Origin: a virus
Lineage: Duplodnaviria; Heunggongvirae; Uroviricota; Caudoviricetes
IMG/VR virus record: IMGVR_UViG_2690316210_000010
Span: 1 to 23,122 of that record
Length of the DNA stretch: 23,122 bases
Direction: 5' to 3' (one strand)
Each line of letters opens with the position of its first letter. Position 1 is the first letter of the stretch. Positions 1 to 23,122 of this stretch are shown here, in pieces. The translations under genes were made by a program, and so were the position numbers. Under the pieces are notes generated by a model. The model worked only from the letters and a program-made list of their open reading frames with translations, was not told the DNA's origin and did no database searches.

Positions 1-235
1 ATTCAGCATCCCAGGAATCGAGGGCAGGGCGGGGTATACCAGGTTTATCCTCGCAGACAATAAATTTATAAGCGCAGTCCTGAGCAGCCGGATAATGTTC
101 CAGGAATTGCCAGTGAAATTTTGCGCGGGCGCGGCGTTCGTCGCCGGCTTCAATGGCAGTGGCTACAGGTTTAGCGCCTTCTTCTTTTGTTGCCTTTTCG
201 TCCGGAATGGCGGCGCAAATAAAGACTTTACTCAT
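1..235 (-). CDS. Prophage early-left-operon hypothetical protein, 5' portion only (gene runs off the window start); paralog of 8697..9095, possibly YdfE-like by position
   Basis: Minus-strand ATG at 233-235; about 88% nucleotide identity to 8866-9095; encodes the N-terminus MSKVFICAAIPDEQ... by paralogy. Family not recognised. Confidence 0.5.
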   Translation of the reverse strand, partial: MSKVFICAAIPDEKATKEEGAKPVATAIEAGDERRARAKFHWQFLEHYPAAQDCAYKFIVCEDKPGIPRPALDSWDAE

Positions 236-328
236 TTTGTTTTAACCTCATTACAGATTTAAGGGTGAACAAATCCCTGCCATTGCTGGCATATAAAAAT
301 GAAACCGGATATTTATTACGTGGCTGCT

Positions 329-520
329 TTAAAGACCTGCCGGGACTTCTTTATTATCCTGGTGAATGATTTTATCAACCGGATAACAGTTACCGGGAAT
401 TTTCTGTTCAGCTGCAGCAGCCACGCATTCTTTCATGGAGTTGTATACTCCGGTAACCAGTTCAGCTGGTTCGCCCGTATTAAGAATAACGGTCAGAACG
501 AGTGCAAATGCTGTATTCAT
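329..520 (-). CDS. Small membrane/secreted protein immediately downstream of dicB (YdfD-like by position and length, 63 aa)
   Basis: Start chosen at MNTAFALV (ATG 518-520) overlapping the dicB stop in an ATGA motif, AAGGA Shine-Dalgarno upstream; hydrophobic N-terminus; paralog of 9191..9379. Confidence 0.5.
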   Translation of the reverse strand: MNTAFALVLTVILNTGEPAELVTGVYNSMKECVAAAAEQKIPGNCYPVDKIIHQDNKEVPAGL

Positions 521-705
521 CGCCAGCATCCTTTTTGCATCAGACGCAAACGAGCCAGCATTGAAACAATGCATATTTTATTTAATGACTCCCGTTCGTG
601 TTTTCTCTTGTTAATGGCATCTTCAGTAAATACAGGGTTACTGATAGTGACACCAATTTCAAAACAACCTTCAGACGTATTAACGTTTGGTAATAACGTT
701 TCCAT
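517..705 (-). CDS. dicB: Cell division inhibitor DicB (62 aa)
   Basis: Translation METLLPNVNTSEGCFEIGVTISNPVFTEDAINKRK... matches my recollection of E. coli Qin DicB; GAGGA Shine-Dalgarno upstream; sits downstream of a DicF-like sRNA as in the K-12 dicB operon. Confidence 0.8.
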   Translation of the reverse strand: METLLPNVNTSEGCFEIGVTISNPVFTEDAINKRKHERESLNKICIVSMLARLRLMQKGCWR

Positions 706-715
706 TATCGCGTCC

Positions 716-1273
716 TCAACAATGAATTTTGAGTAATTGCTCTACAGTCATATTTTTAATTGCGCCCCGGTTAACAAGAGTCCATCCCTGTTCTTCCAGA
801 TAAAACCGGAAAGTCTCCATGGTACAGACCCGTGCGCCATCAGGAACGGTTTCGGTGAATCTGATGTTGCCGCGTTCGTCGAAGTGAACAACCAGGGTGC
901 GGCCATCGCCTGGAATTATTTTGTCAGTGGGTGGGGTGTTATTCTGGCGCAGTTCGGCCTCCATGCGATCGAACTCAGCAATGTAGGCTTCTTTAAATGC
1001 AGCGGCTTTTTTGCCAGTGAATCCCATCACCAGGAAAACGAAGCCGTTTTTGGTGATTTGGTACATCGGGCGTTTTTCGCCTTTGGCGTCAGTGTAGGTG
1101 ACGTCCTCAAAATTGAGGGCGTTAAATTCAGGTGAGCATTCAGTATTTGCGATGGCACGTAACACATTGTCGTGACGCTTGCCAAAGAACTCTGCGATCG
1201 CAATAGACGTAGTGACAGCGCGACCATTTTCGATGGTTACGTCAGGGTGAGAAAGGGCAGGGATAGTAGCCAT
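716..1273 (-). CDS. Rha-family phage regulatory protein (antirepressor-like)
   Basis: Start set at MATIPALSHPDVTIENGRAVTTSIAIAEFFGKRHDNVLRAI with GAGGA Shine-Dalgarno; this N-terminal motif is typical of Rha/ORF6N proteins. The ORF track extends to 1570 but that extension overlaps the conserved DicF-flanking repeat. Gene is absent at the equivalent position of P2. Confidence 0.65.
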   Translation of the reverse strand: MATIPALSHPDVTIENGRAVTTSIAIAEFFGKRHDNVLRAIANTECSPEFNALNFEDVTYTDAKGEKRPMYQITKNGFVFLVMGFTGKKAAAFKEAYIAEFDRMEAELRQNNTPPTDKIIPGDGRTLVVHFDERGNIRFTETVPDGARVCTMETFRFYLEEQGWTLVNRGAIKNMTVEQLLKIHC

Positions 1274-1512
1274 GATGGCATCCTCGAGTGATAAGTTAAT
1301 TAACTCACCACCGAGGTTTTCCACGACCATAAGGGTGGTGAGACGTACAGGGGTGGAAATACCGGTCACTCGAGAACCCGGCCAGTCTTGCGACTGCCCT
1401 GCACATCCCACCATAATTTGAATGGAGCTGTGCATTACGCATAAAAAAACCGCTTCAGCGCGGCTATGCGCTCGAGTAACGTTCGGGTTTCCACGCCCGG
1501 CACCCGTTTTAT

Positions 1513-1810
1513 AAGGTGCAGGTGCACTATAATTCCACCCGTTCTGGTTTTCAATAGCTACATTCAACATTTTCTCTTTCCTTTCATCACCGAAGTGAAC
1601 TTTGTTGATGCGGTGCCTGGTGCCTCCAGGTGACGTTAACCAGTTAACAATTAACGCCGGATACAGGGAAACCCATAACCACCCGATACGGGGGAACTAA
1701 TCGCTTTTTAACTGTGCCGCGTGCGCTGAGCCGCATTCACCGCATCACAAAATTCACTTTAAAAAGGGCGGACATCAGCCAGCAATTAAACCGATGCCGC
1801 CAACTGGTAC
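1513..1810. repeat. Direct repeat copy 1 (~300 bp: dicF-dicB intergenic region plus DicF-like gene); near-identical to 3599..3895
   Basis: Visible alignment of 1513-1806 with 3599-3890 with only a few mismatches, diverging at the DicF 5' end; a third, more diverged copy lies at 9590-9800. Confidence 0.8.
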
Positions 1811-1816
1811 TTCACA
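1761..1816 (-). ncRNA. DicF-family sRNA variant (P0)
   Basis: Minus-strand sequence ends ...GGCGGCAUCGGUUUAAUUGCUGGCUGAUGUCCGCCCUUUUU, keeping the DicF GGCGG..CCGCC terminator and U-tail, but the 5' and internal sequence differ from canonical DicF. Ends are approximate. Confidence 0.4.
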
Positions 1817-1879
1817 CAGCAATGTCGTTATTTACAACCGGAGGCGCACTCCCACCATTTAAATTTAACAGACAAGACC

Positions 1880-2517
1880 GGTGATGCTGCCAACTTACTG
1901 ATTTAGTGTATGATGGTGTTTTTGAGGTGCTCCAGTGGCTTCTGTTTCTATCAGCTGTCCCTCCTGTTCAGCTACTGACGGGGTGGTGCGTAACGGCAAA
2001 AGCACTGCCGGACATCAGCGCTATCTCTGCTCTCACTGCCGTAAAACATGGCAACTGCAGTTCACTTACACCGCTTCTCAACCCGGTACGCACCAGAAAA
2101 TCATTGATATGGCCATGAATGGCGTTGGATGCCGGGCAACTGCACGCATTATGGGCGTTGGCCTCAACACGATTTTACGTCACTTAAAAAACTCAGGCCG
2201 CAGTCGGTAACCTCGCGCATACAGCCGGGCAGTGACGTCATCGTCTGCGCGGAAATGGACGAACAGTGGGGCTATGTCGGGGCTAAATCGCGCCAGCGCT
2301 GGCTGTTTTACGCGTATGACAGTCTCCGGAAGACGGTTGTTGCGCACGTATTCGGTGAACGCACTATGGCGACGCTGGGGCGTCTTATGAGCCTGCTGTC
2401 ACCCTTTGACGTGGTGATATGGATGACGGATGGCTGGCCGCTGTATGAATCCCGCCTGAAGGGAAAGCTGCACGTAATCAGCAAGCGATATACGCAGCGA
2501 ATTGAGCGGCATAACCT
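1880..2517 (+). mobile_element. IS1, 3'-truncated (left inverted repeat through mid-insB)
   Basis: Begins with the IS1 terminal repeat GGTGATGCTGCCAACTTACTGATTTAGTGTATGATGG; insA and insB recognisable; IS1 sequence stops after ...GAGCGGCATAACCT, where IS3-family sequence takes over. Confidence 0.85.
1935..2210 (+). CDS. insA: IS1 InsA
   Basis: 91-aa translation [42 protein letters not shown]... matches IS1 InsA. Confidence 0.9.
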
Positions 2518-2701
2518 TTTAGGACAATGGGTTACCGCCGCCAGAAAAGGGCTCGGTACTCCTGGTTCCCGCACGGTGGCTGAACTGGAATCTGAAATTC
2601 TGCAACTGCGTAAGGCGTTAAATGAAGCTCGCCTTGAGCGAGATATATTAAAAAAAGCAACAGCGTATTTTGCACAGGAGTCGCTGAAAAATACGCGTTA
2701 A
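2129..2701 (+). pseudogene. insB: Chimeric ORF: IS1 InsB (first ~129 aa) fused in frame to the C-terminal ~60 aa of an IS3-family OrfA
   Basis: Translation follows InsB up to ...[14 protein letters not shown], then continues [60 protein letters not shown], a typical IS3-family OrfA C-terminus. Confidence 0.75.
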
Positions 2702-3598
2702 TCGAACAATGGCGACAACAATTTCCCATTGAAGCGATGTGTCAGGTATTTGGTGTATCCAGGAGCGGTTATTACAACTGGGTACAGCATGAACCCTCAG
2801 ACAGAAAACAAAGTGATGAGCGGCTAAAACTGGAGATTAAGGTGGCACATATCCGCACTCGCGAAACATATGGAACCCGGCGGCTCCAGACGGAGCTGGC
2901 AGAGAATGGCATCATCGTTGGTCGTGACCGACTGGCACGTCTTCGTAAGGAGCTAAGGCTACGCTGTAAGCAGAAACGCAAGTTCAGAGCGACTACGAAC
3001 TCGAACCACAATCTGCCAGTTGCGCCAAATCTGCTGAACCAGACGTTCGCTCCTACAGCACCAAATCAGGTCTGGGTGGCGGACCTGACGTATGTTGCCA
3101 CACAGGAGGGATGGTTGTACCTCGCTGGCATCAAAGATGTTTATACGTGCGAAATTGTCGGCTACGCCATGGGAGAGCGCATGACAAAAGAGCTGACAGG
3201 TAAAGCCCTGTTTATGGCGCTCAGGAGCCAGCGCCCACCTGCCGGGCTAATCCACCACTCTGATCGAGGTTCACAGTACTGCGCATACGATTACCGGGTC
3301 ATACAGGAGCAGTCTGGTCTGAAAACATCAATGTCGCGTAAAGGTAACTGTTACGACAACGCTCCGATGGAAAGCTTCTGGGGAACGCTGAAAAATGAGA
3401 GCCTGAGCCACTATCGTTTTAATAACCGGGATGAAGCCATCTCAGTAATACGGGAATACATTGAGATTTTCTACAATCGTCAGCGTCGTCACTCTCGTCT
3501 GGGGAATATCTCCCCGGCAGCCTTCAGGGAAAAATATCATCAGATGGCTGCTTAAAAAAAGAACAAATGGTAGTGTCCGCTATTGCCAGTACACCTCA
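2518..3598 (+). mobile_element. IS3-family element (IS600/IS911-like), 5'-truncated, right end intact
   Basis: OrfA C-terminus, A-run slippery motif near 2647-2656, OrfB in the -1 frame, and a right end ...GTACACCTCA consistent with an IS3-family terminal CA. Exact IS name not verified. Confidence 0.7.
2737..3555 (+). CDS. IS3-family transposase OrfB (DDE catalytic domain); coordinates are the first in-frame ATG, natively expressed by -1 frameshift from OrfA
   Basis: 272-aa translation with DDE-transposase hallmarks (...WVADLTYV..., ...HHSDRGSQYCA..., ...CYDNAPMESFWGTLK...). Confidence 0.8.
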   Translation: MCQVFGVSRSGYYNWVQHEPSDRKQSDERLKLEIKVAHIRTRETYGTRRLQTELAENGIIVGRDRLARLRKELRLRCKQKRKFRATTNSNHNLPVAPNLLNQTFAPTAPNQVWVADLTYVATQEGWLYLAGIKDVYTCEIVGYAMGERMTKELTGKALFMALRSQRPPAGLIHHSDRGSQYCAYDYRVIQEQSGLKTSMSRKGNCYDNAPMESFWGTLKNESLSHYRFNNRDEAISVIREYIEIFYNRQRRHSRLGNISPAAFREKYHQMAA

Positions 3599-3895
3599 AA
3601 GGTGCAGGTGCACTATAATTCCACCCGTTCTGGTTTTCAATAGCTACATTCAACATTTTCTCTTTCCTTTCATCACCGAAGTGAACTTTGTTGATGCGGT
3701 GCCTGGTGCCTCCAGGTGACGTTAACCAGTTAACAATTAACGCCGGATACAGGGAAACCCATAACCACCCGATACGGGGGAACTAATCGCTTTTTAACTG
3801 TGCCGCGTGCGCTGAGCCGCATTCACCGCATCACAAAATTCACTTTAAAAAGGGCGGACATCAGCCAGCAATGAAACTGATGCCGCCAAAGGTAC
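3599..3895. repeat. Direct repeat copy 2 (dicF-dicB intergenic region plus DicF-like gene), abutting the IS3-family right end
   Basis: Aligns with 1513-1810; starts immediately after the IS3-family terminus. Confidence 0.8.
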
Positions 3896-3902
3896 CAATC
3901 AA
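3847..3902 (-). ncRNA. DicF-family sRNA variant (P1)
   Basis: Minus strand reads UUGGUACCUUUGGCGGCAUCAGUUUCAUUGCUGGCUGAUGUCCGCCCUUUUU: DicF-like terminator and U-tail with a divergent 5' region. Ends approximate. Confidence 0.4.
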
Positions 3903-4087
3903 CATGGAGTGTTGTGGCGTGGTTGTCACTTAAGCGTATGGTCAACCTGACAACCCGGTGTCCTCAACGGGGAAGGAATAACTCCGCCATACTTACCGCC
4001 GCGTCATTTCGCGTTGTGTGCCTGCTTTTAACCACGTCAGGCGAGGTGGTATCCTTCTTATCCCGAATAACCAAGAAGGAAATCTAT

Positions 4088-4288
4088 ATGACTAAAGAAG
4101 AATTTGTCTCTTATATTTTTGATAAAACGGTTGAAATGTATGCCGCTACTTACGGGTCCTGTAATCCTCTGAATAAACCAGAGGGAAAAGATGATTTCGA
4201 CAAAATTTACCGCTTCTTGGAGGACCGCTATATCAAAAGCTTAGAGGACGCAGGGATCAAATCCCCAGTGAAGTCACCATTGTCCTGA
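4088..4288 (+). CDS. Hypothetical small protein (66 aa) in the variable cassette, antisense to the dicB operon
   Basis: ATG at 4088 with AAGGA Shine-Dalgarno; 3' end overlaps the convergent gene 4257..4634 by 32 nt; no homolog recognised; P2 has an unrelated gene at the same position. Confidence 0.4.
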   Translation: MTKEEFVSYIFDKTVEMYAATYGSCNPLNKPEGKDDFDKIYRFLEDRYIKSLEDAGIKSPVKSPLS

Positions 4289-4634
4289 GAACTTGCAGAA
4301 CGTCATGATCATAACTTCCATCCAAACCGCGACGGCGAATTGCTTCTCGTATTACCGGAAGCAGTTCGCTGGAAATCTCGGTGCATATTTCACCTGATAA
4401 TACGCTTGGCTCAAGTGAGAATATTGGTGAACTTACGGTCTTGGTCTCGACAGTTTCAGAGTCAGTGCCAACATTATAAAGCTCAACGAAAGCGGTCTTG
4501 ATTTTCCGGGCCAGATCTTTTGCTGGCTCGCTTGCAATATCTTTCCCGATTTCTCGCAGCACAGAATGCAATGTATGAGCTGCTGTTTTCTGTACATCAG
4601 ACGGTAAATCTTTAAATTCCATCGTCAGCCTCAT
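4257..4634 (-). CDS. Hypothetical protein (125 aa), variable-cassette gene translationally coupled to the ydfA-like gene
   Basis: Start ATG overlaps the upstream stop (TGATG); first 11 aa MRLTMEFKDLP are identical to the P2 gene 10374..10787, after which the proteins are unrelated. Confidence 0.5.
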   Translation of the reverse strand: MRLTMEFKDLPSDVQKTAAHTLHSVLREIGKDIASEPAKDLARKIKTAFVELYNVGTDSETVETKTVSSPIFSLEPSVLSGEICTEISSELLPVIREAIRRRGLDGSYDHDVLQVLRTMVTSLGI

Positions 4635-4786
4635 CAGTCAGTGTTTCTGGCTAACCAGCAACGCGCGCCAGATTCGGTTTTAAACGTTTTGCTTTTGGTA
4701 TACGTCATGGCGGTAAACGTTCCATCCTGGTTAGGGAACACGCCGCACACCAGAGATTCGTTGTTGCCAAGATCGATAGTATCCAT
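4634..4786 (-). CDS. YdfA/YdaF-like small protein (~50 aa)
   Basis: MDTIDLGNNESLVCGVFPNQDGTFTAMTYTKSKTFKTE... with GAGG Shine-Dalgarno; first gene after the repressor-side promoter, as ydfA/ydaF in Qin/Rac; near-identical paralog at 10787..10939. Confidence 0.6.
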   Translation of the reverse strand: MDTIDLGNNESLVCGVFPNQDGTFTAMTYTKSKTFKTESGARCWLARNTD

Positions 4787-4966
4787 GCTGACCTCATTTC
4801 CCCTTAACGCCGGGGTGGCGGAACAAAAAACCTGCTGCATAGTTAAAGATTGAACCCTGCCGTCATGTTCTTACGCCTCGGGCTGGCTACTTAACCCCTG
4901 ACCACTGTCTGGTAACTCGAAGTATTGCCCTGCATTCTGTGGGGCGGGGTGGGTTGACGCCTGAAA

Positions 4967-5008
4967 CAATAGCATCATTATTTTTTGATGTAAATAGCAT
5001 CGCTATTG
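4967..5008. promoter_or_regulatory. Operator-like inverted repeats (OL-like) of the P1 immunity region
   Basis: AATAGCATCGCTATT (perfect inverted repeat) and a degenerate copy AATAGCATCATTATT; same motif recurs beside the repressor start at 6103-6143. Confidence 0.45.
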
Positions 5009-5024
5009 TTTTTGTTGGGGCAAG

Positions 5025-5050
5025 AAAAAACCACCCTAAGGTGGTTCTGT
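5025..5050 (-). terminator. Rho-independent terminator after the repressor-antitoxin-toxin operon
   Basis: Minus strand reads AACCACC-TTAG-GGTGGTT followed by TTTTTT, just downstream of the ParE-like gene. Confidence 0.6.
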
Positions 5051-5062
5051 CGGCGGGAATAA

Positions 5063-5353
5063 TTAACTGTTTTTGCCTGGATACTGTCTTCGAGAATGCA
5101 CAATATTTACTACTTCTATGCTTGATGCTGTTACTCGGTAAAGGATGATGTAGTTAGGATGAGTTACAATTTCACGAAGACCAAGAACTCGCTCGCTTGG
5201 AGGATACAGGTAAGGATGCTCTGTGAGCGGCAAAACGGATGTTTCAATTCGAATTTTCATTCTGCGTGCTGCCGCGGGATTTTCTTTAGCTATGTAGGCT
5301 ACGATCTGGCGCAAATCATCACGAGCAGATGGTAGCCATAAAACGGGTAACAT
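5063..5353 (-). CDS. ParE/RelE-superfamily type II toxin
   Basis: 96-aa translation MLPVLWLPSARDDLRQIVAYIAKENPAAARRMKIRIE...YIILYRVTASSIEVVNIVHSRRQYP fits the ParE pattern; start overlaps the upstream antitoxin stop (TAATG). Confidence 0.7.
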   Translation of the reverse strand: MLPVLWLPSARDDLRQIVAYIAKENPAAARRMKIRIETSVLPLTEHPYLYPPSERVLGLREIVTHPNYIILYRVTASSIEVVNIVHSRRQYPGKNS

Positions 5354-5547
5354 TATTCACCTCTGTGAGTTGCAGCAGCAATTTGGGCAATAATTTGTTC
5401 CATTTCCGCCATTACCTCATCATGCGGAATCGCCGGGCGGGGATCCGCGAGGCTTGCTGCTACTTTGGCCCGCAGCCATTCGTTGTAACTATTTTCTTGC
5501 TCAACTGTCTCAAATTCTGAAACCATTGGGGAAAGGACTGTACTCAT
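5353..5547 (-). CDS. Type II antitoxin (ParD/CC2985-like) paired with the ParE-like toxin
   Basis: 64-aa acidic protein ...YNEWLRAKVAASLADPRPAIPHDEVMAEMEQII...; AGGAG Shine-Dalgarno; translationally coupled upstream of the toxin. Confidence 0.55.
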   Translation of the reverse strand: MSTVLSPMVSEFETVEQENSYNEWLRAKVAASLADPRPAIPHDEVMAEMEQIIAQIAAATHRGE

Positions 5548-5566
5548 TTTACATATCTCCTCTGAT

Positions 5567-6067
5567 TTAGGCGCGACGGCCTTTTTGTGCAGCTAACCAC
5601 CGCGCAACCGTACGATCCATTGATTCTTTTTTATCTTTCATCTCCTGAAGCATGTGTTCTTGATCTTCTTTCGGAAAAGCTCTGAACGTATGGATTAAAT
5701 CTCGTTCCATCGGCTCTACGGCAAACGGTAGTTCATCCTCTGTTTGTTCTGTGTCTGCTGGTAATGCGACTATGTTATCTTGCTGTGGTTCTCGACAATA
5801 CATCCTTGCAATTTGCAGCAAATCTACCATGTCTGGCCTGATTGACTCAGGGGGAACTTTCAGTAAGCCAGCAAACTTTAGTACAGCCTCAAGGTTTAGT
5901 GGGGTTTGACCATTTAGGTAGTGACTTACCGCCCCTTGTGTTGAAAACCCCATAATTTCCGCCGCACGTTCCTGAGTCAATCCCAACTGAGATTTCTTTG
6001 CCATCCAGATTTCTTTCAGTCTTCTGGCGGCGTTGAGGTCGGTGTCTGACAATGATTTTCTTTTCAT
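5567..6067 (-). CDS. CI-like HTH repressor without a recognisable S24 peptidase domain
   Basis: Start chosen at MKRKSLSDTDLNAARRLKEIWMAKKSQLGLTQERAAEIMGF..., which resembles the lambda CI N-terminal domain; the C-terminus shows no Ser/Lys peptidase motif; divergent from the Cro-like gene. Confidence 0.7.
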   Translation of the reverse strand: MKRKSLSDTDLNAARRLKEIWMAKKSQLGLTQERAAEIMGFSTQGAVSHYLNGQTPLNLEAVLKFAGLLKVPPESIRPDMVDLLQIARMYCREPQQDNIVALPADTEQTEDELPFAVEPMERDLIHTFRAFPKEDQEHMLQEMKDKKESMDRTVARWLAAQKGRRA

Positions 6068-6080
6068 ACATCCAATTCTA

Positions 6081-6146
6081 ATAAGATTGCTAATCACTTT
6101 GAAATAGCATCACTATTTACTTTTAAAAATAACAGTGCTATTAATT
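6081..6146. promoter_or_regulatory. OR-like operator/promoter region between the divergent repressor and Cro-like genes (P1)
   Basis: Operator repeats AATAGCATCACTATT (6103-6117) and AATAACAGTGCTATT (6129-6143); candidate rightward promoter -35 TTTACT (6116-6121), 17-bp spacer, -10 TATTAA (6139-6144). Confidence 0.45.
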
Positions 6147-6178
6147 ATGCATTGGTAACACATCACATAGGGCGGATT

Positions 6179-6442
6179 ATGAATCTTGGAGAATATTTGC
6201 ATCATTTTCATATAACCCAGAGTTCATTTGCTGAGATTGTTGGCGCATCCCAAGGGATGGTCAGCCACGTTATAACGGGGCGTGCAAAACTTACAGGAGA
6301 AAAAATATTACGTTGGTGTGAAGCAACGGGATGGGTGGTGACCCCACATGAGATTGACAGTAAAACCTACCCCAACCCAACTGACGGCTTGCCTGCTGAG
6401 TTTCAGGCTAACACACAACCATCGGCGGGGGTTGATTCATGA
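6179..6442 (+). CDS. Cro/YdaS-like HTH regulator
   Basis: MNLGEYLHHFHITQSSFAEIVGASQGMVSHVITGRAKLTGEKILRWCEATGW...; divergent from the repressor; stop overlaps the next gene start. Confidence 0.6.
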   Translation: MNLGEYLHHFHITQSSFAEIVGASQGMVSHVITGRAKLTGEKILRWCEATGWVVTPHEIDSKTYPNPTDGLPAEFQANTQPSAGVDS

Positions 6443-6864
6443 AAATCAAGCATGAACACATCCGCATGGCGATGAAAGCCTGGGCGCATCCGGACGGTGA
6501 AAAAGTTCCGGCAGCTGAAATAACCAGGGTTTATTTCGAACTGGGAATGACGTTTCCGGTTCTGCATAACGACAGCAAGCACAACACGCTTTATCTCAAC
6601 ACCCAAAAGATTTTCCGTTGGCTGGATAAAGACACCCCTGACGCTGTTGAAAAAATTCAGGCGTTGTTACCTGCGATCGAAAGGGCAATGCCACCTCCGC
6701 TGGTGGCTCGAATGCGCAGCCACAGTTCAGCTTATTTTCGGGAACTGGTGGAGACGCATGAACGACTGGTGAGAGACGCTGATGATTTTGTCGCAGTGGC
6801 AATCGCCGGTTTCAATCAGATGAACCGTGGTGGCCCGGCAGGAAATGCTGTGGCAGTACATTGA
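6439..6864 (+). CDS. YdaT-like protein (141 aa)
   Basis: MKIKHEHIRMAMKAWAHPDGEK...; position after the Cro/YdaS-like gene and length match Rac YdaT; paralog at 11990..12415. Confidence 0.6.
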   Translation: MKIKHEHIRMAMKAWAHPDGEKVPAAEITRVYFELGMTFPVLHNDSKHNTLYLNTQKIFRWLDKDTPDAVEKIQALLPAIERAMPPPLVARMRSHSSAYFRELVETHERLVRDADDFVAVAIAGFNQMNRGGPAGNAVAVH

Positions 6865-6935
6865 CTGACAATAGCCATATCGAATCGCTCCCGGCAACTC
6901 GTGAGTAAAAAGATTCGGTATCAGAAGAGGTGAGT

Positions 6936-7976
6936 ATGGCTAACGCCTGGCTCAGATTATGGCATGACATGCCAAATGACCCTAAGTGGCGAACAATTGC
7001 CAGGGTGTCAGGGCAGCCAATTGCAACAGTGATGGCAGTGTATATCCACCTCCTGGTGAGCGCGTCACGAAATGTCACGCGAGGTCACATTGATGTCACG
7101 ACAGAAGATTTGGCAAGTGCGCTCGACGTGACAGAAGAGGTAATTGATTCAATTTTGCAGACGATGCAGGGGCGGGTACTTGATGGTGATTTAATCACTG
7201 GATGGGAAAAACGCCAGGTGCTTAAAGAGGACAACGGCAATATTTCGCAAACCGCAAAATCTCCTGCAGAGCGCAAGAGGGCGCAGCGAGAGAGGGAAAG
7301 AAAGCGGGAACAAAATGGCGATTGTCACGGCGCGTCACGAAATGTCACGCACATGTCACGACGAGTCACGACAGATACAGATAAAGATACAGATAAAGAA
7401 GATCAAAACACTATGGTCCATGGCGTAAAAAACGCCACGAACCAGGCAGGGGATGTTCAGACCGTCAATCCTGGTCAGCCAGCAGGCTCGACACCGGAAG
7501 CCGATTCGGGCGCTGTGCAGCAGGTGATGACCGCAAGGCCGGAGCAATCACTCCAACTGCAGCAGCCTGAAGCCGATTCCGCCATTCAGCGGGAAGCCGA
7601 TCGGGTAGCCCCGGAAAACACCGGGCAGCCTGTGGGACGAGTGGATTATCCGGATGTGTTCGAACAGGTCTGGCGGGAATACCCGTTGCGTGCCGGGGCA
7701 AACCCGAAGAAATCCGCATTCAGTGCCTGGAAGGCCAGATTGCGCGAGGGGGTGCCACCAGAGACCATGCTGGATGGTGTGAGGCGTTACGCGAGATACC
7801 TGGCGGCGACCGGGAAAGCGGGAACGGAATTTGTTCAGCGAGCGACGACGTTTTTTGGGCCGGACCGGAATTTTGAAAACCCCTGGTTGCTCCCGGTAAG
7901 CGGCACGAACAACCAGCGTTGTGTGAATCATATTTCTGAACCGGATACCGAAATTCCGCCGGGATTCAGGGGGTGA
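6936..7976 (+). CDS. Replication initiator (lambda O / YdaU-like) with embedded origin iterons
   Basis: ATG 6936 with GAGG Shine-Dalgarno; precedes the DnaC-like gene; contains GTCACG iteron arrays; C-terminal 20 aa identical to the otherwise unrelated P2 initiator. Confidence 0.6.
   Translation: MANAWLRLWHDMPNDPKWRTIARVSGQPIATVMAVYIHLLVSASRNVTRGHIDVTTEDLASALDVTEEVIDSILQTMQGRVLDGDLITGWEKRQVLKEDNGNISQTAKSPAERKRAQRERERKREQNGDCHGASRNVTHMSRRVTTDTDKDTDKEDQNTMVHGVKNATNQAGDVQTVNPGQPAGSTPEADSGAVQQVMTARPEQSLQLQQPEADSAIQREADRVAPENTGQPVGRVDYPDVFEQVWREYPLRAGANPKKSAFSAWKARLREGVPPETMLDGVRRYARYLAATGKAGTEFVQRATTFFGPDRNFENPWLLPVSGTNNQRCVNHISEPDTEIPPGFRG
7061..7099. repeat. Iteron set 1: four GTCAC(G) repeats at 10-11-bp phasing inside the O-like gene
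   Basis: GTCAC at 7064, 7074, 7084 and 7095. Confidence 0.6.
7324..7410. repeat. Iteron set 2: five GTCACG repeats at 10-11-bp phasing followed by an AT-rich tract; putative replication origin
   Basis: GTCACG at 7324, 7334, 7344, 7355 and 7365, then ATACAGATAAAGATACAGATAAAGAAGATCAAAACA. Confidence 0.6.
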
Positions 7977-7982
7977 TGTGGC

Positions 7983-8729
7983 ATGAAAAACATTGCGGCA
8001 GCCGGGGTTCTTGAACGTATTCACAGACTTGCACCACAGGGGGCGGTTCCACCGTACCGGACGGTGGAGGAGTGGCGGGAATGGCAACTTGCTGAAGGAC
8101 GAAAACGCAGCGAGGAGATTAACCGCCAGAATCGCCAGTTGCGGGTGGAAAAAATCCTGAATCGTTCGGGCATCCAGCCTCTGCACAGCAAATGCTCGTT
8201 TGCGAATTATCAGGTGCAGAACGACGGGCAAAAATACGCGCTGAGCCAGGCCAAATCCATAGCTGACGAACTGATGACCGGGTGCACGAATTTTGTGTTC
8301 AGCGGTAAAACCGGCACCGGGAAAAATCACCTTGCAGCGGCGATGGGTAACTGGCTGATGGCGAAGGGGCGCAGCGTGATTATCGTCACCGTGTCTGATG
8401 TCATGAGCGTGTTGCATGACAGCTACGACAACGGCAAATCCGGTGAAAAATTTTTACAGGAGCTTTGCGGGGTTGATTTGCTGGTCCTGGATGAAATAGG
8501 CATTCAGCGGGAGACGAAAAACGAGCAGGTGGTATTGCACCAGATAATTGATCGCCGGACAGCATCACTGTGCAGTGTCGGGATGTTAACAAACCTGAAT
8601 CATGCCGCAATGAGTACGCTTCTTGGTGAGAGGATTATGGACCGCATGACCATGAACGGTGGTCGATGGGTGACGTTTAACTGGGATAGCTGGCGTTCAA
8701 ATGTCAGCTTTCCGGGAGTTGTGAAGTAA
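7983..8729 (+). CDS. DnaC-like AAA+ helicase loader (YdaV-like, 248 aa)
   Basis: Walker A FSGKTGTGKNHLAAAMG and Walker B DLLVLDEIG; about 97% identical at protein level to 13407..14153. Confidence 0.8.
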   Translation: MKNIAAAGVLERIHRLAPQGAVPPYRTVEEWREWQLAEGRKRSEEINRQNRQLRVEKILNRSGIQPLHSKCSFANYQVQNDGQKYALSQAKSIADELMTGCTNFVFSGKTGTGKNHLAAAMGNWLMAKGRSVIIVTVSDVMSVLHDSYDNGKSGEKFLQELCGVDLLVLDEIGIQRETKNEQVVLHQIIDRRTASLCSVGMLTNLNHAAMSTLLGERIMDRMTMNGGRWVTFNWDSWRSNVSFPGVVK

Positions 8730-9095
8730 TTTTTGTTGAACCATGACAGCGTTCTGTACTTCAGGGGCCAGCTTGTCAAAAGTGACGTTCATCGGATCTG
8801 ATTCAGTCTCAACCGGGACAAAGGAAGCAGACTCCTCATCCCAGCGGTTTTCCTGCATATATTCAGCATCCCAGGAATCGAGGGCAGGGCGGGGTATACC
8901 GGGTTTATCCTCGCAAACAAGAAATTTATAAGCGCAGTCCTGAGCTGCAGGGAATTGCTCCAGAAATTGCCAATGAAATTTTGCGCGTGCGCGACGCTCA
9001 TCACCGGCTTCAATGGCAGTGGCCACCGCAACAGCGCTATCTTCTTTTATGGCCTGTTCATCAGGAATAGCAGCGCAAATAAAGACCTTACTCAT
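8697..9095 (-). CDS. Prophage early-left-operon hypothetical protein (132 aa), possibly YdfE-like by position; 3' end overlaps the P1 DnaC-like gene
   Basis: Minus-strand ORF MSKVFICAAIPDEQAIKEDSAVAVATAIEAGDERRARAKFHWQFLEQFPAAQD...; last ~11 codons lie antisense inside the DnaC-like 3' end, so the C-terminus may be junction-derived. Confidence 0.5.
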   Translation of the reverse strand: MSKVFICAAIPDEQAIKEDSAVAVATAIEAGDERRARAKFHWQFLEQFPAAQDCAYKFLVCEDKPGIPRPALDSWDAEYMQENRWDEESASFVPVETESDPMNVTFDKLAPEVQNAVMVQQKLLHNSRKADI

Positions 9096-9190
9096 TTTGT
9101 TTTAACCTCATTACAGATTTCAGGGTGAACGAATCCCTGCCATTGCTGGCATTTTTAATCCGTTGGTATGGTGTTAATATGGCTGGAAGG

Positions 9191-9379
9191 TTATCCAGCC
9201 GGTGTTTCGTTATTCAGGTACAGCGATACTTTTTTTAGCGGGAGGCATTCACCAGAAATTTTTTGCTCGTCTCTTGCCTGGAGGCAGGATTCTTTACTTG
9301 CATAAATTCCGGTAATCACATTCTGTGATTCACCCGTTATAAGAAAAACCGTCATCATCAGTGCAAATGCTGAAGTCAT
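9191..9379 (-). CDS. Small membrane protein downstream of dicB (YdfD-like)
   Basis: MTSAFALMMTVFLITGESQNVITGIYASKESCLQARDEQKISGECLP...; start overlaps the dicB-like stop (ATGA); paralog of 329..520. Confidence 0.5.
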   Translation of the reverse strand: MTSAFALMMTVFLITGESQNVITGIYASKESCLQARDEQKISGECLPLKKVSLYLNNETPAG

Positions 9380-9564
9380 TGACGTTCTCCGAAAATACCA
9401 AGTTCAAGAAGAGCAATTCGGGAAAGTATGGAATTATCATTGAGCAGATAAGGCTCATATTTCCTCATATTAATGGCATCTTCAGTAAACTCCCGGTTAC
9501 TGAGCAGAACACCAATATCAAAACAACCTTCAGACGTATTAACGTTTGGTAATAACGTTTCCAT
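9376..9564 (-). CDS. dicB: DicB-like cell division inhibitor with a divergent C-terminal half
   Basis: N-terminal 35 aa METLLPNVNTSEGCFDIGVLLSNREFTEDAINMRK resemble DicB; the C-terminal half differs from the P0 copy. Confidence 0.65.
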   Translation of the reverse strand: METLLPNVNTSEGCFDIGVLLSNREFTEDAINMRKYEPYLLNDNSILSRIALLELGIFGERQ

Positions 9565-9742
9565 TATCGCGTCCTCAACAATGAATTTTGTGATGCAGTG
9601 CCTGGTGCCTCCAGGTGACGTTAACCAGTTAACAATTAACGCCGGGTTAGTTGATGCTCGTTACGCCCGTAAAATACCGCCTTACTGCTTTAACTGTTCC
9701 GCGTGCGCATAGCCGCATTCACCGCATCACAAAATTCACTTT

Positions 9743-9800
9743 AAAAAGGGCGGCAGAGCAGTCACGGAGTAAAACTGATACCGCCAAATGTCACCAGAAA
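9743..9800 (-). ncRNA. dicF: DicF sRNA (canonical-type)
   Basis: Minus strand reads UUUCUGGUGACAUUUGGCGGUAUCAGUUUUACUCCGUGACUGCUCUGCCGCCCUUUUU, matching my recollection of E. coli DicF apart from about one base; located between the ydfA-like/variable genes and dicB as in Qin. Confidence 0.8.
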
Positions 9801-15539: not shown

Positions 15540-16226
15540 ATGACCCCAATAAAAATATTTATGACTATTGCTGATTTCAAACGGCCTAAATTGGAGCTCC
15601 CAAACGGGGCAAACAAACTACTACTGCACTCTTGCTGTGCTCCATGTTCCGGTGAAGTGATGGAGGCGCTTCAGGCCTCGGGAATCGACTACACCATCTT
15701 TTTCTACAACCCGAACATTCATCCTCAGAAAGAGTATTTAATTCGTAAGGATGAAAATATTCGCTTTGCTGAACAACACGGCGTGCCGTTTATCGATGCT
15801 GATTACGACACCGACAACTGGTTTGAACGTGCCAAAGGAATGGAATGGGAGCCTGAGAGGGGGATCCGTTGTACCATGTGTTTTGACATGCGTTTTGAGC
15901 GGACAGCGTTGTACGCTGCTGAAAATGGTTTCAGTGTGATCAGCAGTTCACTGGGCATTTCACGCTGGAAAAATATGCAGCAGGTTAACGACTGTGGGCG
16001 GCGAGCCGTCGCGCATTATCCGGGCATGGTGTACTGGGATTATAACTGGCGCAAGCAGGGCGGCTCGTCCCGTATGATTGAAATCAGCAAGCGCGAAAAA
16101 TTCTATCAGCAGGAATATTGTGGCTGTGTGTATTCTCTGCGCGATACCAATCTACACCGCAAATCTCAGGGACGCCCTCTTATCAAAATTGGTCAACTCC
16201 ACTACGGTAAAGAAGAGAAGGAGTGA
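15540..16226 (+). CDS. QueH-like protein (DUF208, epoxyqueuosine reductase family)
   Basis: N-terminal [11 protein letters not shown] motif plus further conserved Cys/His/Asp residues resemble DUF208/QueH; no obvious Shine-Dalgarno, so start is uncertain. Confidence 0.55.
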
Positions 16227-16453
16227 TTTTATGGGGCACCTTTCTGATTGATTTCATATTGGCGAGGTAAGTAGAATGACTGCGGGTGCTTGAGGCTATC
16301 TGCTTCAGGCATGAACACCAAAAGGCAGATAGAGAAAAGCCCCAGTTAACATTACGCGTCCGGCAAGACGCTTAACATTAATCTGAGGCCAATTTCATGC
16401 TTTGCACATGTAGGTTAGCCTCTTACATGCCGAAAGGCAAGGAGAAGCAGGCT

Positions 16454-16609
16454 ATGAAGCAGCAAAAGGCGATGTTAATCGCCCTGATCGTCATCTGTTT
16501 AACCGTCATAGTGACGGCACTGGTAACGAGGAAAGACCTCTGTGAGGTACGAATCCGAACCGGCCAGACGGAGGTCGCTGTCTTCGTAGACTACGAATCC
16601 AGGAAGTAA
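16454..16609 (+). CDS. hokD: Hok-family type I toxin (HokD/RelF-like); overlapping upstream Mok-like frame begins at 16397
   Basis: MKQQKAMLIALIVICLTVIVTALVTRKDLCEVRIRTGQTEVAVF... matches Hok/RelF; GGAG Shine-Dalgarno. Confidence 0.75.
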   Translation: MKQQKAMLIALIVICLTVIVTALVTRKDLCEVRIRTGQTEVAVFVDYESRK

Positions 16610-17146: not shown

Positions 17147-17184
17147 ACTCCTGCTGTGTAACACCGTGCCACCGGAGAAAGCCG

Positions 17185-17784
17185 ATGGCACATATACAAC
17201 TGGTCAAACAAACCTCTTCCGGATTACTTCTCCCGGCGACGCCGGAGAGTTGCGATTTTCTGCATCAAATCAAAATAGGTGAGTGGATACACGCAGACTT
17301 TAAGCGTGTGTGTAACTACGCATTCCACAAGCGTTTTTTCAAACTCCTGCAACTGGGTTTCGATTACTGGACTCCGGTCGGTGGGGCGATCACGCCTCGC
17401 GAACGAAAACTGGTGTCCGGTTTCGTTGATTACCTGTGTGAATCAGTAGGCCGGGAACATACGCCAGCTCTGAGCGAAGCCGCAGAGCAATATCTGAATA
17501 CAGTTGCGACACGCAGAACCAGTGATACGGCATTGCTAAAGTCGTTTGAGGCTTTCCGCGAGTGGGTAGCCATTCAGGCCGGATTTTACACCGAGCATTT
17601 TTATCCGGACGGTAGCCGTGGGTGTCGGGCGAAATCTATCGCGTTTGCGAATATGGACGAAACCGAGTTTCAGCAGGTTTATAAATCTGTTCTGAATGTG
17701 CTGTGGAACTGGATTCTGTTCCGTAAATTTTCCTCTCCGGAACAAGTCGAAAATGTGGCCGCGCAGCTGCTGGAGTTTGCGTAA
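17185..17784 (+). CDS. DUF1367-like prophage protein, tandem copy A
   Basis: GGAG Shine-Dalgarno; MAHIQLVKQTSSGLLLPATPESCDFLHQIK...; stop overlaps the next gene start (TAATG). Family assignment from memory. Confidence 0.55.
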   Translation: MAHIQLVKQTSSGLLLPATPESCDFLHQIKIGEWIHADFKRVCNYAFHKRFFKLLQLGFDYWTPVGGAITPRERKLVSGFVDYLCESVGREHTPALSEAAEQYLNTVATRRTSDTALLKSFEAFREWVAIQAGFYTEHFYPDGSRGCRAKSIAFANMDETEFQQVYKSVLNVLWNWILFRKFSSPEQVENVAAQLLEFA

Positions 17785-18074
17785 TGGTGGATTTACGTAA
17801 AGCGGCGCGGGGGCAGATGTGCACCGTCAGAATTCCTGGCTACTGCAATCACGATCCGGAAACGTCTGTGCTGGCGCATTACCGACTGGCGGGAACGTGC
17901 GGAACAGCGATAAAGCCACACGATATGCAGGCAGCGATTGCCTGTAGCTCGTGCCACGATTTAATCGACGGGCGGGTAAAAACCAGCGATTACACCAAAG
18001 AAGAATTACGCCTGATGCATGCAGAAGGTGTTTTTCGCACACAAGAAATCTGGAGAAAGGAGGGATATTTATGA
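17784..18074 (+). CDS. YbcO-like (DUF1364) zinc-binding protein, copy A
   Basis: 96 aa with four paired Cys (C..C...C..C) and position before Q as in DLP12 ybcO; identical in copies B and C. Confidence 0.55.
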
Positions 18075-18448
18075 TTTACCCAACGAATACAGGAAAAAGC
18101 GGAGAACACCTTCGTCTCACCACGCTGGAAAGTGTCTGGATTCAGGGAAAACTACGTATGTGGGGGCGCTGGTCGTATATTGGTGGCGGTAAGACGGGGA
18201 ATATGTTTAACCTGATGTTGACCTCTAAAAAGCTGACAAAAACGGCAATTAACGAGGCGCTCCGGAGGATGAAAAAAGCAGGTCTGAACAAGTCTGAACT
18301 TGCTGCCGCCATGAAGCAGATTAAAGAACTCCAGCGCCTGCTCGGCAAGAAAACGATGGAAAATGAACTCCTCAAAGAAGCCGTTGAATATGGACGGGCA
18401 AAAAAGTGGATAGCGCACGCGCCCTTATTGCCCGGGGATGGGGAGTAA
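18071..18448 (+). pseudogene. Truncated Q-like antiterminator (first ~74 aa) fused in frame to the C-terminal part of IS2 InsC
   Basis: [16 protein letters not shown]...NKSEL, then [48 protein letters not shown] (IS2 InsC C-terminus); junction at the shared 10-mer TCTGAACTTG (18293-18302). Confidence 0.75.
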
Positions 18449-19322
18449 GCTTAGTCAGCCGTTGTCTCCGGGTGTCGCGTGCGCAGTTGCACGTCATTCT
18501 CAGACGAACCGATGACTGGATGGATGGCCGCCGCAGTCGTCACACTGATGATACGGATGTGCTTCTCCGTATACACCATGTTATCGGAGAGCTGCCCACG
18601 TATGGTTATCGTCGGGTATGGGCGCTGCTTCGCAGACAGGCAGAACTTGATGGTATGCCTGCGATCAATGCCAAACGTGTTTACCGGATCATGCGCCAGA
18701 ATGCGCTGTTGCTTGAGCGAAAACCTGCTGTACCGCCATCGAAACGGGCACATACAGGCAGAGTGGCCGTGAAAGAAAGCAATCAGCGATGGTGCTCTGA
18801 CGGGTTCGAGTTCTGCTGTGATAACGGAGAGAGACTGCGTGTCACGTTCGCGCTGGACTGCTGTGATCGTGAGGCACTGCACTGGGCGGTGACTACCGGC
18901 GGCTTCAACAGTGAAACAGTACAGGACGTCATGCTGGGAGCGGTGGAACGCCGCTTCGGCAACGATCTTCCGTCGTCTCCAGTGGAGTGGCTGACGGATA
19001 ATGGTTCATGCTACCGGGCTAATGAAACACGCCAGTTCGCCCGGATGTTGGGACTTGAACCGAAGAACACGGCGGTGCGGAGTCCGGAGAGTAACGGAAT
19101 AGCAGAGAGCTTCGTGAAAACGATAAAGCGTGACTACATCAGTATCATGCCCAAACCAGACGGGTTAACGGCAGCAAAGAACCTTGCAGAGGCGTTCGAG
19201 CATTATAACGAATGGCATCCGCATAGTGCGCTGGGTTATCGCTCGCCACGGGAATATCTGCGGCAGCGGGCTTGTAATGGGTTAAGTGATAACAGATGTC
19301 TGGAAATATAGGGGCAAATCCA
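18293..19322 (+). mobile_element. IS2, 5'-truncated (mid-insC to right end ...GGGGCAAATCCA)
   Basis: insC 3' part, insD and the right terminus are recognisable; the left ~300 bp of IS2 is absent. Confidence 0.85.
18406..19311 (+). CDS. insD: IS2 transposase InsD (natively expressed as an InsCD frameshift product)
   Basis: 301-aa translation ...[32 protein letters not shown]... with DDE motifs. Confidence 0.85.
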
Positions 19323-19364
19323 ACGGGCTGAACACCCATTCTACTGCGCCAGCGGAGAACTACG

Positions 19365-19964
19365 ATGGCGCATATACAACTGATCAAACAAACCTCTTCC
19401 GGATTACTTCTCCCGGCGACGCCGGAGAGTTGCGATTTTCTGCATCAAATCAAAATAGGTGAGTGGATACACGCAGACTTTAAGCGTGTGTGTAACTACG
19501 CATTCCACAAGCGTTTTTTCAAACTCCTGCAACTGGGATTCGATTACTGGACTCCGGTCGGTGGGGCGATCACGCCTCGCGAACGAGAACTGCTGTCTGG
19601 TTTCGTTGATTACCTGTGCGAATCAGTAGGTCGGGAACATACGCCAGCTCTGAGCGAAGCCGCAGAGCAATATCTGAATACAGTTGCGACACGCAGAACC
19701 AGTGATACGGCATTGCTAAAGTCGTTTGAGGCTTTCCGCGAGTGGGTAGCCATTCAGGCCGGATTTTACACCGAGCATTTTTATCCGGACGGTAGCCGTG
19801 GGTGTCGGGCGAAATCTATCGCGTTTGCGAATATGGACGAAACCGAGTTTCAGCAGGTTTATAAATCTGTTCTGAATGTGCTGTGGAACTGGATTCTGTT
19901 CCGTAAATTTTCCTCTCCGGAACAAGTCGAAAATGTGGCCGCGCAGCTGCTGGAGTTTGCGTAA
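19365..19964 (+). CDS. DUF1367-like prophage protein, copy B (mosaic of A-type and C-type sequence)
   Basis: About 99% identical to copy A, but carries C-type substitutions at the 5' end (LIKQ, RERELLSGF). Confidence 0.55.
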   Translation: MAHIQLIKQTSSGLLLPATPESCDFLHQIKIGEWIHADFKRVCNYAFHKRFFKLLQLGFDYWTPVGGAITPRERELLSGFVDYLCESVGREHTPALSEAAEQYLNTVATRRTSDTALLKSFEAFREWVAIQAGFYTEHFYPDGSRGCRAKSIAFANMDETEFQQVYKSVLNVLWNWILFRKFSSPEQVENVAAQLLEFA

Positions 19965-20254
19965 TGGTGGATTTACGTAAAGCGGCGCGGGGGCAGATGT
20001 GCACCGTCAGAATTCCTGGCTACTGCAATCACGATCCGGAAACGTCTGTGCTGGCGCATTACCGACTGGCGGGAACGTGCGGAACAGCGATAAAGCCACA
20101 CGATATGCAGGCAGCGATTGCCTGTAGCTCGTGCCACGATTTAATCGACGGGCGGGTAAAAACCAGCGATTACACCAAAGAAGAATTACGCCTGATGCAT
20201 GCAGAAGGTGTTTTTCGCACACAAGAAATCTGGAGAAAGGAGGGATATTTATGA
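19964..20254 (+). CDS. YbcO-like (DUF1364) protein, copy B
   Basis: Identical translation to copies A and C. Confidence 0.55.
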
Positions 20255-21492: not shown

Positions 21493-21503
21493 GGGCAAAT
21501 CCA
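20473..21503 (+). mobile_element. IS2, 5'-truncated, second copy
   Basis: Same structure and right end as 18293..19322. Confidence 0.85.
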
Positions 21504-21545
21504 ACGGGCTGAACACCCATTCTACTGCGCCAGCGGAGAACTACG

Positions 21546-22145
21546 ATGGCGCATATACAACTGATCAAACAAACCTCTTCCGGATTACTTCTCCCGGCGA
21601 CGCCGGAGAGTTGCGATTTTCTGCATCAAATCAAAACAGGTGAGTGGATACACGCAGACTTTAAGCGTGTGCGTAACTACGCATTCCACAAGCGTTTTTT
21701 CAAACTCCTGCAACTGGGATTCGATTACTGGACTCCGGTCGGTGGGGCGATCACGCCTCGCGAACGAGAACTGCTGTCTGGTTTCGTTGATTACCTGTGC
21801 GAATCAGTAGGTCGGGAACATACGCCAGCTCTGAGCGAAGCCGCAGAGCAATATCTGAATACAGTTGCGACACGCAGAACCCGGGATACGGCATTGCTAA
21901 AGTCGTTTGAGGCTTTTCGCGAGTGGGTAACCATTCAGGCTGGATTTTACACCGAACATTTTTATCCGGACGGTAGCCGCGGGCGTCGGGCAAAATCCAT
22001 CGCTTTTGCGAATATGGACGAAACCGAGTTTCAGCAGGTTTATAAATCTGTTCTGAATGTGCTGTGGAACTGGATTCTGTTCCGTAAATTTTCCTCTCCG
22101 GAACAAGTCGAAAATGTGGCCGCGCAGCTGCTGGAGTTTGCGTAA
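21546..22145 (+). CDS. DUF1367-like prophage protein, copy C (most diverged)
   Basis: Several substitutions relative to A and B (KTGEW, RVRNY, TRDTALL, WVTIQ, RGRRAKS). Confidence 0.55.
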   Translation: MAHIQLIKQTSSGLLLPATPESCDFLHQIKTGEWIHADFKRVRNYAFHKRFFKLLQLGFDYWTPVGGAITPRERELLSGFVDYLCESVGREHTPALSEAAEQYLNTVATRRTRDTALLKSFEAFREWVTIQAGFYTEHFYPDGSRGRRAKSIAFANMDETEFQQVYKSVLNVLWNWILFRKFSSPEQVENVAAQLLEFA

Positions 22146-22986: not shown

Positions 22987-23062
22987 CGTAAAAACTGCTT
23001 CAATTCTTGTACGCTTCGCAAAGCTGTACCGCGAGGCGAATAGCAGACATGGACATTTGAAA

Positions 23063-23088: not shown

Positions 23089-23122
23089 TACCTGAAAAAC
23101 GGCACAGGACGTTAAACGTGCT

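Follow-up and report, generated by a model that had tools for sequence, protein, structure and literature searches.

Three DicF/KilS-like small RNA elements with divergent predicted pairing regions in an IS-interrupted lambdoid prophage mosaic

Introduction

When a prophage stretch carries three look-alikes of the small RNA (sRNA) DicF within 8 kb, are they three copies of one regulator or related sRNAs with different targets? This question is raised by a 23,122-nucleotide (nt) stretch of Caudoviricetes DNA (IMG/VR record IMGVR_UViG_2690316210_000010, positions 1 to 23,122), hereafter the window. An original prediction, made from the sequence alone, had placed three DicF-family genes in it, P0, P1 and P2, of which P0 and P1 were thought to have divergent 5' regions and possibly altered targets. 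The three elements were recovered within a few bases of the predicted places, all on the minus strand, and the sequences quoted for them were correct. On balance, we consider it probable that the window holds three early-left regions of the Qin/Rac type truncated by insertion sequences (IS), each with one sRNA of a DicF/KilS superfamily, and that P0 and P1 have targets other than those of DicF.

Faubladier and Bouche, in 1994, reportedly found dicF-related sequences to be widespread among E. coli and Shigella prophage regions. DicF itself, from the dicBF operon of the K-12 Qin prophage, pairs with the ribosome-binding site of ftsZ via its 3' region and with xylR via its 5' end, and the DicF comparison in the same study used sequences more than 99% identical (Balasubramanian et al. 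2016, PMC5069750). Processing of DicF from the operon transcript by RNase E and RNase III is reported by Faubladier et al. (1990). KilS (b4833), located in the 5' untranslated region of kilR in the Rac prophage, emerged as a predicted sRNA from Hfq RIL-seq data, and a northern blot confirmed it; published start-site data indicate that it can be transcribed from a promoter of its own, yncL is its partner in RIL-seq, and the paper nowhere mentions DicF (Bar et al. 2021, PMC8175672). ECS007 of Shinhara et al. (2011) may correspond to KilS. Both sRNAs are thus established, as is the presence of dicF-related sequences in prophages. The connection of KilS to DicF, the series of modular alleles and the P0 and P1 alleles described below appear to be undescribed in the literature searched.

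Results

Identity of P2, P1 and P0

We compared the three elements with the Rfam DicF model (RF00039; gathering score of 48 bits) and with the K-12 loci; their positions are collected in Table 1. P2 scored 77 bits over all 52 model positions, and 58 of the 59 aligned columns were identical to K-12 dicF, the sole difference being G12A, so that the description of P2 as a near-canonical DicF holds. It lies between DUF1391 and 137-aa open reading frames (ORFs) on one side and dicB on the other, which is the position expected in a dicBF-type early-left operon. Compared to K-12 Qin, the identity was 82.4% upstream, 98.3% in the sRNA body and 93.3% downstream. The G12A change (window position 9789, minus strand) falls inside the xylR-pairing seed, and A is found at this position in about 8 of the 80 canonical IMG/VR alleles; the predicted xylR duplex was -11.2 kcal/mol for P2 (A12) versus -15.9 kcal/mol for a 5' module with G12 (L007 allele).

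P1 and P0 scored below the gathering threshold and were only detected at relaxed thresholds, with 38.8 bits (E=1.2e-5) for P1 and 28.6 bits (E=0.007) for P0. The label of DicF family is therefore right for P2, and P0 and P1 are better called DicF-like than members of the family. For P1, the identity to K-12 Qin was 90.4% upstream (115 nt), 59.3% in the sRNA body and 95.0% downstream. Compared with the 98.3% of the P2 body, these values indicate that the divergence of the P1 body is uncoupled from that of its flanks. In the operon, P1 stands where DicF does: on the upstream side, the repressor, a promoter-like site and the upstream genes are kept, and this part of the operon is 99.5% identical to an uninterrupted relative (L131). 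The downstream side is cut by IS600 and the downstream genes are lost to the IS block; intact relatives of P1 carry there isrK-C4-ash/rha-dicB, or dicB directly. Where lambda has rexAB, this operon has a PaaA2-ParE toxin-antitoxin pair, flanked by the prophage repressor on one side and the pL-like promoter on the other.

P0 resembles another known sRNA. When P0 and its upstream flank were used as a query, 1509 of the 5426 complete E. coli genomes matched at 90-95% identity; among them was K-12 MG1655, where the match lies between sieB and kilR in the Rac prophage, at a site annotated as the sRNA KilS (b4833, 1,418,405-1,418,502). The first 43 of 43 nt of KilS and the 24 of 24 nt before its 5' end are identical in P0, and the remaining 50 nt or so are 71.7% identical, with another loop and another pre-stem segment. 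Neither P1 nor P2 has this KilS 5' half or promoter-proximal sequence. The original prediction had P0 end at 1816, which holds for its DicF-like part; given the identity to the 5' end of KilS, the transcript likely extends beyond, to about 1855. Judged from these alignments, P0 would be better described as an allele of the K-12 Rac sRNA KilS than as a DicF. P0 and KilS agree in the 5' half, the 24 nt preceding the start, the terminator scaffold and the leader that follows the sRNA, and differ in the seed (AAGUACCAGUU in P0 versus UAGUCCU in KilS), in the loop (UUUAAUUGCUGG versus UUUUUUUCUUGAAGUUCG) and in the gene that follows, since kilR, which follows KilS, is absent from the window and downstream of P0 come isrK, C4, an Ash/Rha gene and, 1 kb away, dicB. 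In addition, an IS1 terminal repeat begins 24 nt upstream of the putative P0 start, so that the end of IS1 appears to have taken the place of the -35 region; the start site probably survives, together with an extended -10-like motif. KilS in turn proved to be related to DicF: its 3' half forms a hairpin like that of DicF, with the same leader after it, and scored 39.1 bits on the Rfam DicF model, about the score of P1. KilS had no match in Rfam 15.

A constant scaffold around replaced modules

The GGCGG...CCGCC hairpin and the U5 tail at the 3' end are kept in all three copies, as had been predicted for P0 and P1. Besides this stem base and tail, P0, P1 and DicF share a leader of 65 nt directly downstream; it is 95-100% identical among the three copies and also lies 3' of KilS and of DicF in K-12. 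A covariance model built from the allele series presented below (R1) found exactly three copies in the window, with 74.1 bits for P1 and 71.2 bits for P0. The divergence from DicF had been described as one of the 5' regions. The 5' regions do differ, but the divergence is not mainly there: it covers the hairpin loop and the inner stem as well, and both P0 and P1 lack the DicF 5' seed UUCUGGUGAC together with the ftsZ-pairing loop ACUCCGUG. P0 further differs from DicF, which is processed from an operon transcript, by its longer KilS-type 5' half.

Since P0 and P1 both score under the Rfam gathering threshold, their resemblance to DicF might be a chance likeness of GC-rich terminators. This is effectively refuted by the homology of the flanks, and we give it virtually no credence: the downstream 65 nt are 95-100% identical, the upstream flanks are conserved, the operon position is the same, and intermediate and recombinant alleles link the types.

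The first 65 nt of the leader are more conserved than the sRNAs themselves, and the leader is a possible processing or Rho-related element. Sub-threshold matches to the Rfam family STnc100 were observed over all three leaders (1601-1754, 3687-3840 and 9532-9750, minus strand; about 31 bits for a gathering score of 47).

Predicted folding and target pairing

Fold prediction for each variant gave a closed hairpin in all three elements, with minimum free energies of -15.9 kcal/mol for P2, -21.0 kcal/mol for P1 and -21.9 kcal/mol for P0. For the targets, full-length RNAduplex on ftsZ failed to separate DicF from shuffled sequences (z -0.94) and was replaced by a home-made accessibility-aware duplex search and cofold energies, with z scores taken against 31 background K-12 translation-initiation regions. 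For P2, the duplex search recovered the published sites, ACUCCGU of the loop with ftsZ -13..-7 and CUGGUGACA with xylR +13..+21, and further sites were nt 26-43 with pykA -19..+1 and nt 36-54 with manX +34..+53.

The cofold z scores of P2 were -3.6 for ftsZ, -2.8 for manX, -2.3 for xylR and -1.3 for pykA. For P1 they were -1.4, -0.8, -0.6 and -1.95, and for P0 -1.4, 0.0, -0.8 and -1.0, in the same order. The computed ddG with ftsZ was -14.0 for P2 versus -8.0 for P1 and -7.7 for P0. By these calculations, complementarity of the DicF loop and 3' type to the ftsZ ribosome-binding site was at background in both P0 and P1, as was pairing of the DicF 5' seed type with xylR. Taken together, the DicF-specific pairings with ftsZ, xylR and manX are predicted to be lost in P0 and P1. 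The predicted pairing with ftsZ is thus not unchanged in the variants, and with pairing regions that differ, the original suggestion of altered targets is plausible.

Few candidates emerged for other targets. The P1 5' segment AUUGGUACCUUU may pair with the manX ribosome-binding site, a speculative match of anti-Shine-Dalgarno-like type, and only weak duplexes of -3 kcal/mol were obtained for P0 with yncL. No complement of the P1 5' module was found within the window. A 10-nt perfect complement of the P1 loop, GCCAGCAATG, occurs on the operon strand at 277-290 and 9137-9150 (minus strand), about 45 nt upstream of the exonuclease gene; it was rejected as an allele-specific P1 target, because the site also follows the canonical P2 and the two sites are paralogous copies.

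Allele series across Escherichia and Shigella prophages

A scan of IMG/VR for the conserved anchor downstream of the sRNAs then yielded 116 loci that could be used. A majority-identity profile over these loci was dominated by canonical alleles, and identities per allele and segment were used instead. The DicF 5' module with the DicF loop accounted for 80 of the 116 loci and the KilS 5' module with the K-12 KilS loop for 21. The remaining loci combined the P1 5' module with a GUUUUCCC loop (4) or with a UUUNAUUGCUGG loop (2, the P1 type), the KilS 5' module with the UUUNAUUGCUGG loop (4, the P0 type) or with the GUUUUCCC loop (1), and the DicF 5' module with other loops (2); other combinations were found in 2. 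These combinations indicate that 5' modules and loops reassort on a constant scaffold.

Among the 5426 complete E. coli genomes, 3971 had the DicF type, the KilS-type 5' region was found in the 1509 genomes mentioned above, and 92 had the P1 type, 20 of them at an identity of at least 95%. No non-coding RNA annotation was present among the matches listed for the P0 type or for the P1 type. The exact P0 allele was also detected in S. flexneri SFBU1023, E. coli ECMA0423, E. coli FDAARGOS_943 and several IMG/VR prophage contigs, and an identical P1 allele in five loci (L121, L125, L127, L129 and L131); E. coli P393-F10 and 53638 also carry the P1 allele. P0 and P1 are thus recurrent natural alleles. 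In a species-representative genome set, the exact anchor was confined to Escherichia and Shigella, apart from two records of metagenome-assembled genomes assigned elsewhere (one to Candidatus Nanosynbacter), which we take to be contamination.

Putative roles of P0 and P1

The explanation we favour treats the DicF/KilS superfamily as a set of terminator-ended sRNA modules upstream of division-inhibitor genes. In such modules, the base of the terminator stem, the U5 tail and the downstream leader would be the constant parts, and the single-stranded segment at the 5' end and the loop plus inner stem of the hairpin would be replaceable pairing modules. P2 would repress ftsZ, xylR, pykA and manX by Hfq-assisted base pairing, as DicF. 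P0 would combine the KilS 5' half with another seed and another loop, P1 the flanks of the DicF locus with another 5' module and another loop, and both would most likely be sRNAs of the Hfq type acting on targets other than those of DicF. All three hairpins would double as intrinsic terminators in cis, ahead of dicB or of the isrK-C4-ash/rha genes. KilS is a precedent for a variant that shares the scaffold and is a real sRNA with a different RIL-seq partner. sRNA siblings of the OmrA/OmrB type are also paralogues that keep their ends conserved and diverge in an internal segment, and these are tandem core-genome copies with overlapping targets; the likeness is an analogy only, the copies described here lying in different prophages and having the seed modules themselves swapped.

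Several observations weigh against this explanation. Terminator loops are free to vary, and a change of loop alone is no proof of a new seed. No significant covariation was detected in the stem, where 88.9% of the cells paired, shuffles reached an equal level and one compensatory pair was found, which leaves conservation of the sequence and folding energy as the only support for the hairpin. The target predictions are crude, relying on a home-made score and 31 background genes; the pykA score does not discriminate DicF from P0 and P1, and KilS itself formed only a weak duplex with its partner yncL (-3 kcal/mol). The P1 allele was absent from 50,697 deposited phage genomes. With the loss of the P0 -35 region and the truncation of the P1 operon downstream, either element may be silent here. 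The homology of the three elements, their conserved scaffold, the reassortment of modules, the predicted folds, the loss of predicted pairing and the disruption by IS are shown here; that P0 and P1 are expressed, bind Hfq and act on targets in trans is what we infer.

Part of these observations would fit P0 and P1 serving the early-left operon solely as intrinsic terminators or attenuators that gate read-through into dicB, kilR or isrK-C4-ash/rha; the differences in loop and 5' region would then be unconstrained variation shuffled by phage mosaicism, with no role in trans. The stem base and U tail are kept in all alleles while the loops vary freely, no seed is conserved across alleles, a generic terminator scan independently flagged P0 and P1 as terminator-like, and no convincing targets were predicted. 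However, the same scaffold gives two experimentally supported sRNAs, DicF and KilS (PMC5069750, PMC8175672). Moreover, the UUUNAUUGCUGG loop of P0 and P1 recurs nearly unchanged behind different 5' modules, and a P1 body of 59% identity within flanks of 90-95% is hard to square with uniform neutral drift. Overall, we judge a function limited to termination unlikely.

A second possibility is that P0 and P1 are dead remnants in this genome, silenced by IS1 and IS600, and that only P2 is functional, irrespective of any role of the alleles in intact prophages. IS1 stands 24 nt upstream of the KilS-type start with the -35 region gone, IS600 cuts 250 nt downstream of P1, and the surrounding prophages are fragmentary. 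Against such a loss of function, the repressor, the promoter-like site and the upstream genes of P1 are at 99.5% identity to uninterrupted relatives, P0 probably retains its start site and the extended -10-like motif, and both sRNA sequences are identical to alleles in other genomes, which argues for no decay. We therefore regard silent remnants as quite unlikely.

A stronger version of the explanation we favour can also be considered, where the DicF/KilS position is a recombining seed-cassette locus: on a fixed terminator and Hfq-type scaffold within conserved flanks, prophages would swap short 5' and loop modules, thereby retargeting one chassis to various mRNAs of host or phage, and P0 and P1 would be functional sRNAs whose targets differ from ftsZ. 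We put it forward tentatively, as somewhat unlikely in this full form; if true, strains with several alleles, as here, would combine several specificities.

Studies of DicF counted only near-identical copies. KilS, although described separately, has the same chassis as DicF. In E. coli and Shigella, further alleles are in circulation whose pairing regions are replaced; they score below the Rfam threshold and are not annotated as non-coding RNA in the genomes examined. If these variants are active, they would constitute a natural allelic series for the evolution of sRNA target specificity and of the roles of prophage sRNAs in their hosts, and counts of "DicF copies" in pathogens would miss functionally different relatives. 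If they are terminators only, the annotation is still corrected and KilS is still linked to DicF.

Organization of the window

As a mosaic, the window combines at least three early regions of lambdoid type (Table 1). Two relatives without interruption, L131 and L127 (record AAKB02000001.1), have one P1-type copy each, followed by isrK-C4-ash/rha-dicB-DUF1482-exonuclease-xis-int. Positions 8738-3599 and 1810-1 of the window both align to this single arrangement with about 99.5% identity, which indicates that the 291-nt repeat at P0 and P1 is the same downstream module flanking the IS block. The three sRNAs in 8 kb are juxtaposed remnants of IS-truncated prophages and no local expansion of a gene family. 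The arrangement of the window was absent from the complete E. coli genomes and the deposited phages searched, and the load of IS1 and IS600 suggests a Shigella-like host.

Table 1. Positions of the elements and neighboring features in the window.
Feature	Position	Strand	Content or basis
P0, KilS-type sRNA gene	1761-1855	-	about 95 nt by homology; DicF-like part and Rfam DicF match 1766-1816; 5' 43 nt as K-12 KilS, then AAGUACCAGUU, hairpin GGCGGCAUCGG-UUUAAUUGCUGG-CUGAUGUCCGCC, U5 tail
Promoter-proximal 24 nt of P0	1856-1879	-	TGnTAAATT extended -10-like motif; putative promoter
P1, variant at the DicF position	3847-3907	-	5' module GUUGAUUGGUACCUUU, hairpin GGCGGCAUCAG-UUUCAUUGCUGG-CUGAUGUCCGCC, U5 tail; 5' end provisional; Rfam DicF match 3852-3900
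P2, DicF sRNA	9743-9800	-	53 nt at 9748-9800 plus U5 tail; Rfam DicF match 9748-9799
Downstream leader of P0, 65 nt	1707-1771	-	repeat family D10
Downstream leader of P1, 65 nt	3793-3857	-	repeat family D10
Downstream leader of P2, 65 nt	9689-9753	-	repeat family D10
dicB downstream of P2	9376-9564	-	Pfam DicB, 125.5 bits
Segment A	1-1879	-	DUF1482/YdfD-like gene, DicB, Ash/Rha regulator, C4 RNA, isrK, P0 (Rfam, Pfam)
dicB downstream of P0	517-705	-	Pfam; genes downstream of P0 span 517-1519
Ash/Rha regulator	within ORF 716-1570	-	Pfam
C4 RNA	1331-1418	-	Rfam
isrK	1443-1519	-	Rfam
IS block between P0 and P1	1880-3598		annotated transposase-region matches
Partial IS1	1880-2517		638 bp, joined to IS600
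Partial IS600	2518-3598		1081 bp
Segment B, minus-strand part	within 3599-8738	-	P1, 125-aa ORF, DUF1391/YdfA-like, promoter-like site, ParE, PaaA2, helix-turn-helix (HTH) repressor
Segment B, plus-strand part (within 3599-8738)		+	cro-like, YdaT, O-like and DnaC-like genes
Duplicate of 1513-1803	3599-3889	-	291 nt, 99%, repeat D5; P1 hairpin, leader, isrK start; IS600 cut at 3599
Upstream part of P1 operon	4257-6097	-	Pfam, promoter scan
125-aa ORF	4257-4634	-
DUF1391/YdfA-like	4634-4840	-	Pfam
Promoter-like site	4994-4966	-	promoter scan
ParE	5063-5353	-	Pfam
PaaA2	5353-5547	-	Pfam
HTH repressor	5567-6097	-	Pfam
Segment C, minus-strand part	from 8739	-	DUF1482, DicB, P2, 137-aa ORF, DUF1391, 157-aa ORF
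Segment C, plus-strand part		+	YdaS/YdaT and replication genes

Downstream of P0, the C4 antisense RNA (76.7 bits) and isrK (61.2 bits) stand directly upstream of the Ash/Rha-domain ORF, on the minus strand, and form, between the KilS-type sRNA and dicB, a c4-ant-like immunity module of the P1/P7 phage type within a lambdoid early-left operon. At 1480-1532, isrK is overlapped by a match below threshold to c4-a1b1, the C4 target family. A second copy of the promoter-like site of isrK (TTGAAA-17-TATAGT), with the first bases of isrK, is present at 3599-3640 (minus strand) as a truncated twin of 1513-1554. In the related, IS-rich genomes of L129 and L125, IS1 is inserted in the same prophage at the equivalent of window positions 4125-4133, with a 9-bp overlap consistent with target duplication, which indicates independent IS1 hits around the P1 locus.

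Further along the window, positions 17163-23122 hold three tandem copies at a spacing of 2180-2181 bp, 95-100% identical, the unit of which contains DUF1367, YbcO and a DUF1133 (Q-like) gene broken by an IS3-family element; this triplication in the late-regulatory region may reflect tandem amplification linked to IS elements, or an artefact of assembly. At 16284-16609 on the plus strand lies a type I toxin-antitoxin locus of the hok/sok kind (sok RF01794, 117 bits; Hok/Gef ORF 16397-16609), and a homologue of the epoxyqueuosine reductase QueH (15540-16226, plus strand) lies between the replication genes and hok/sok.

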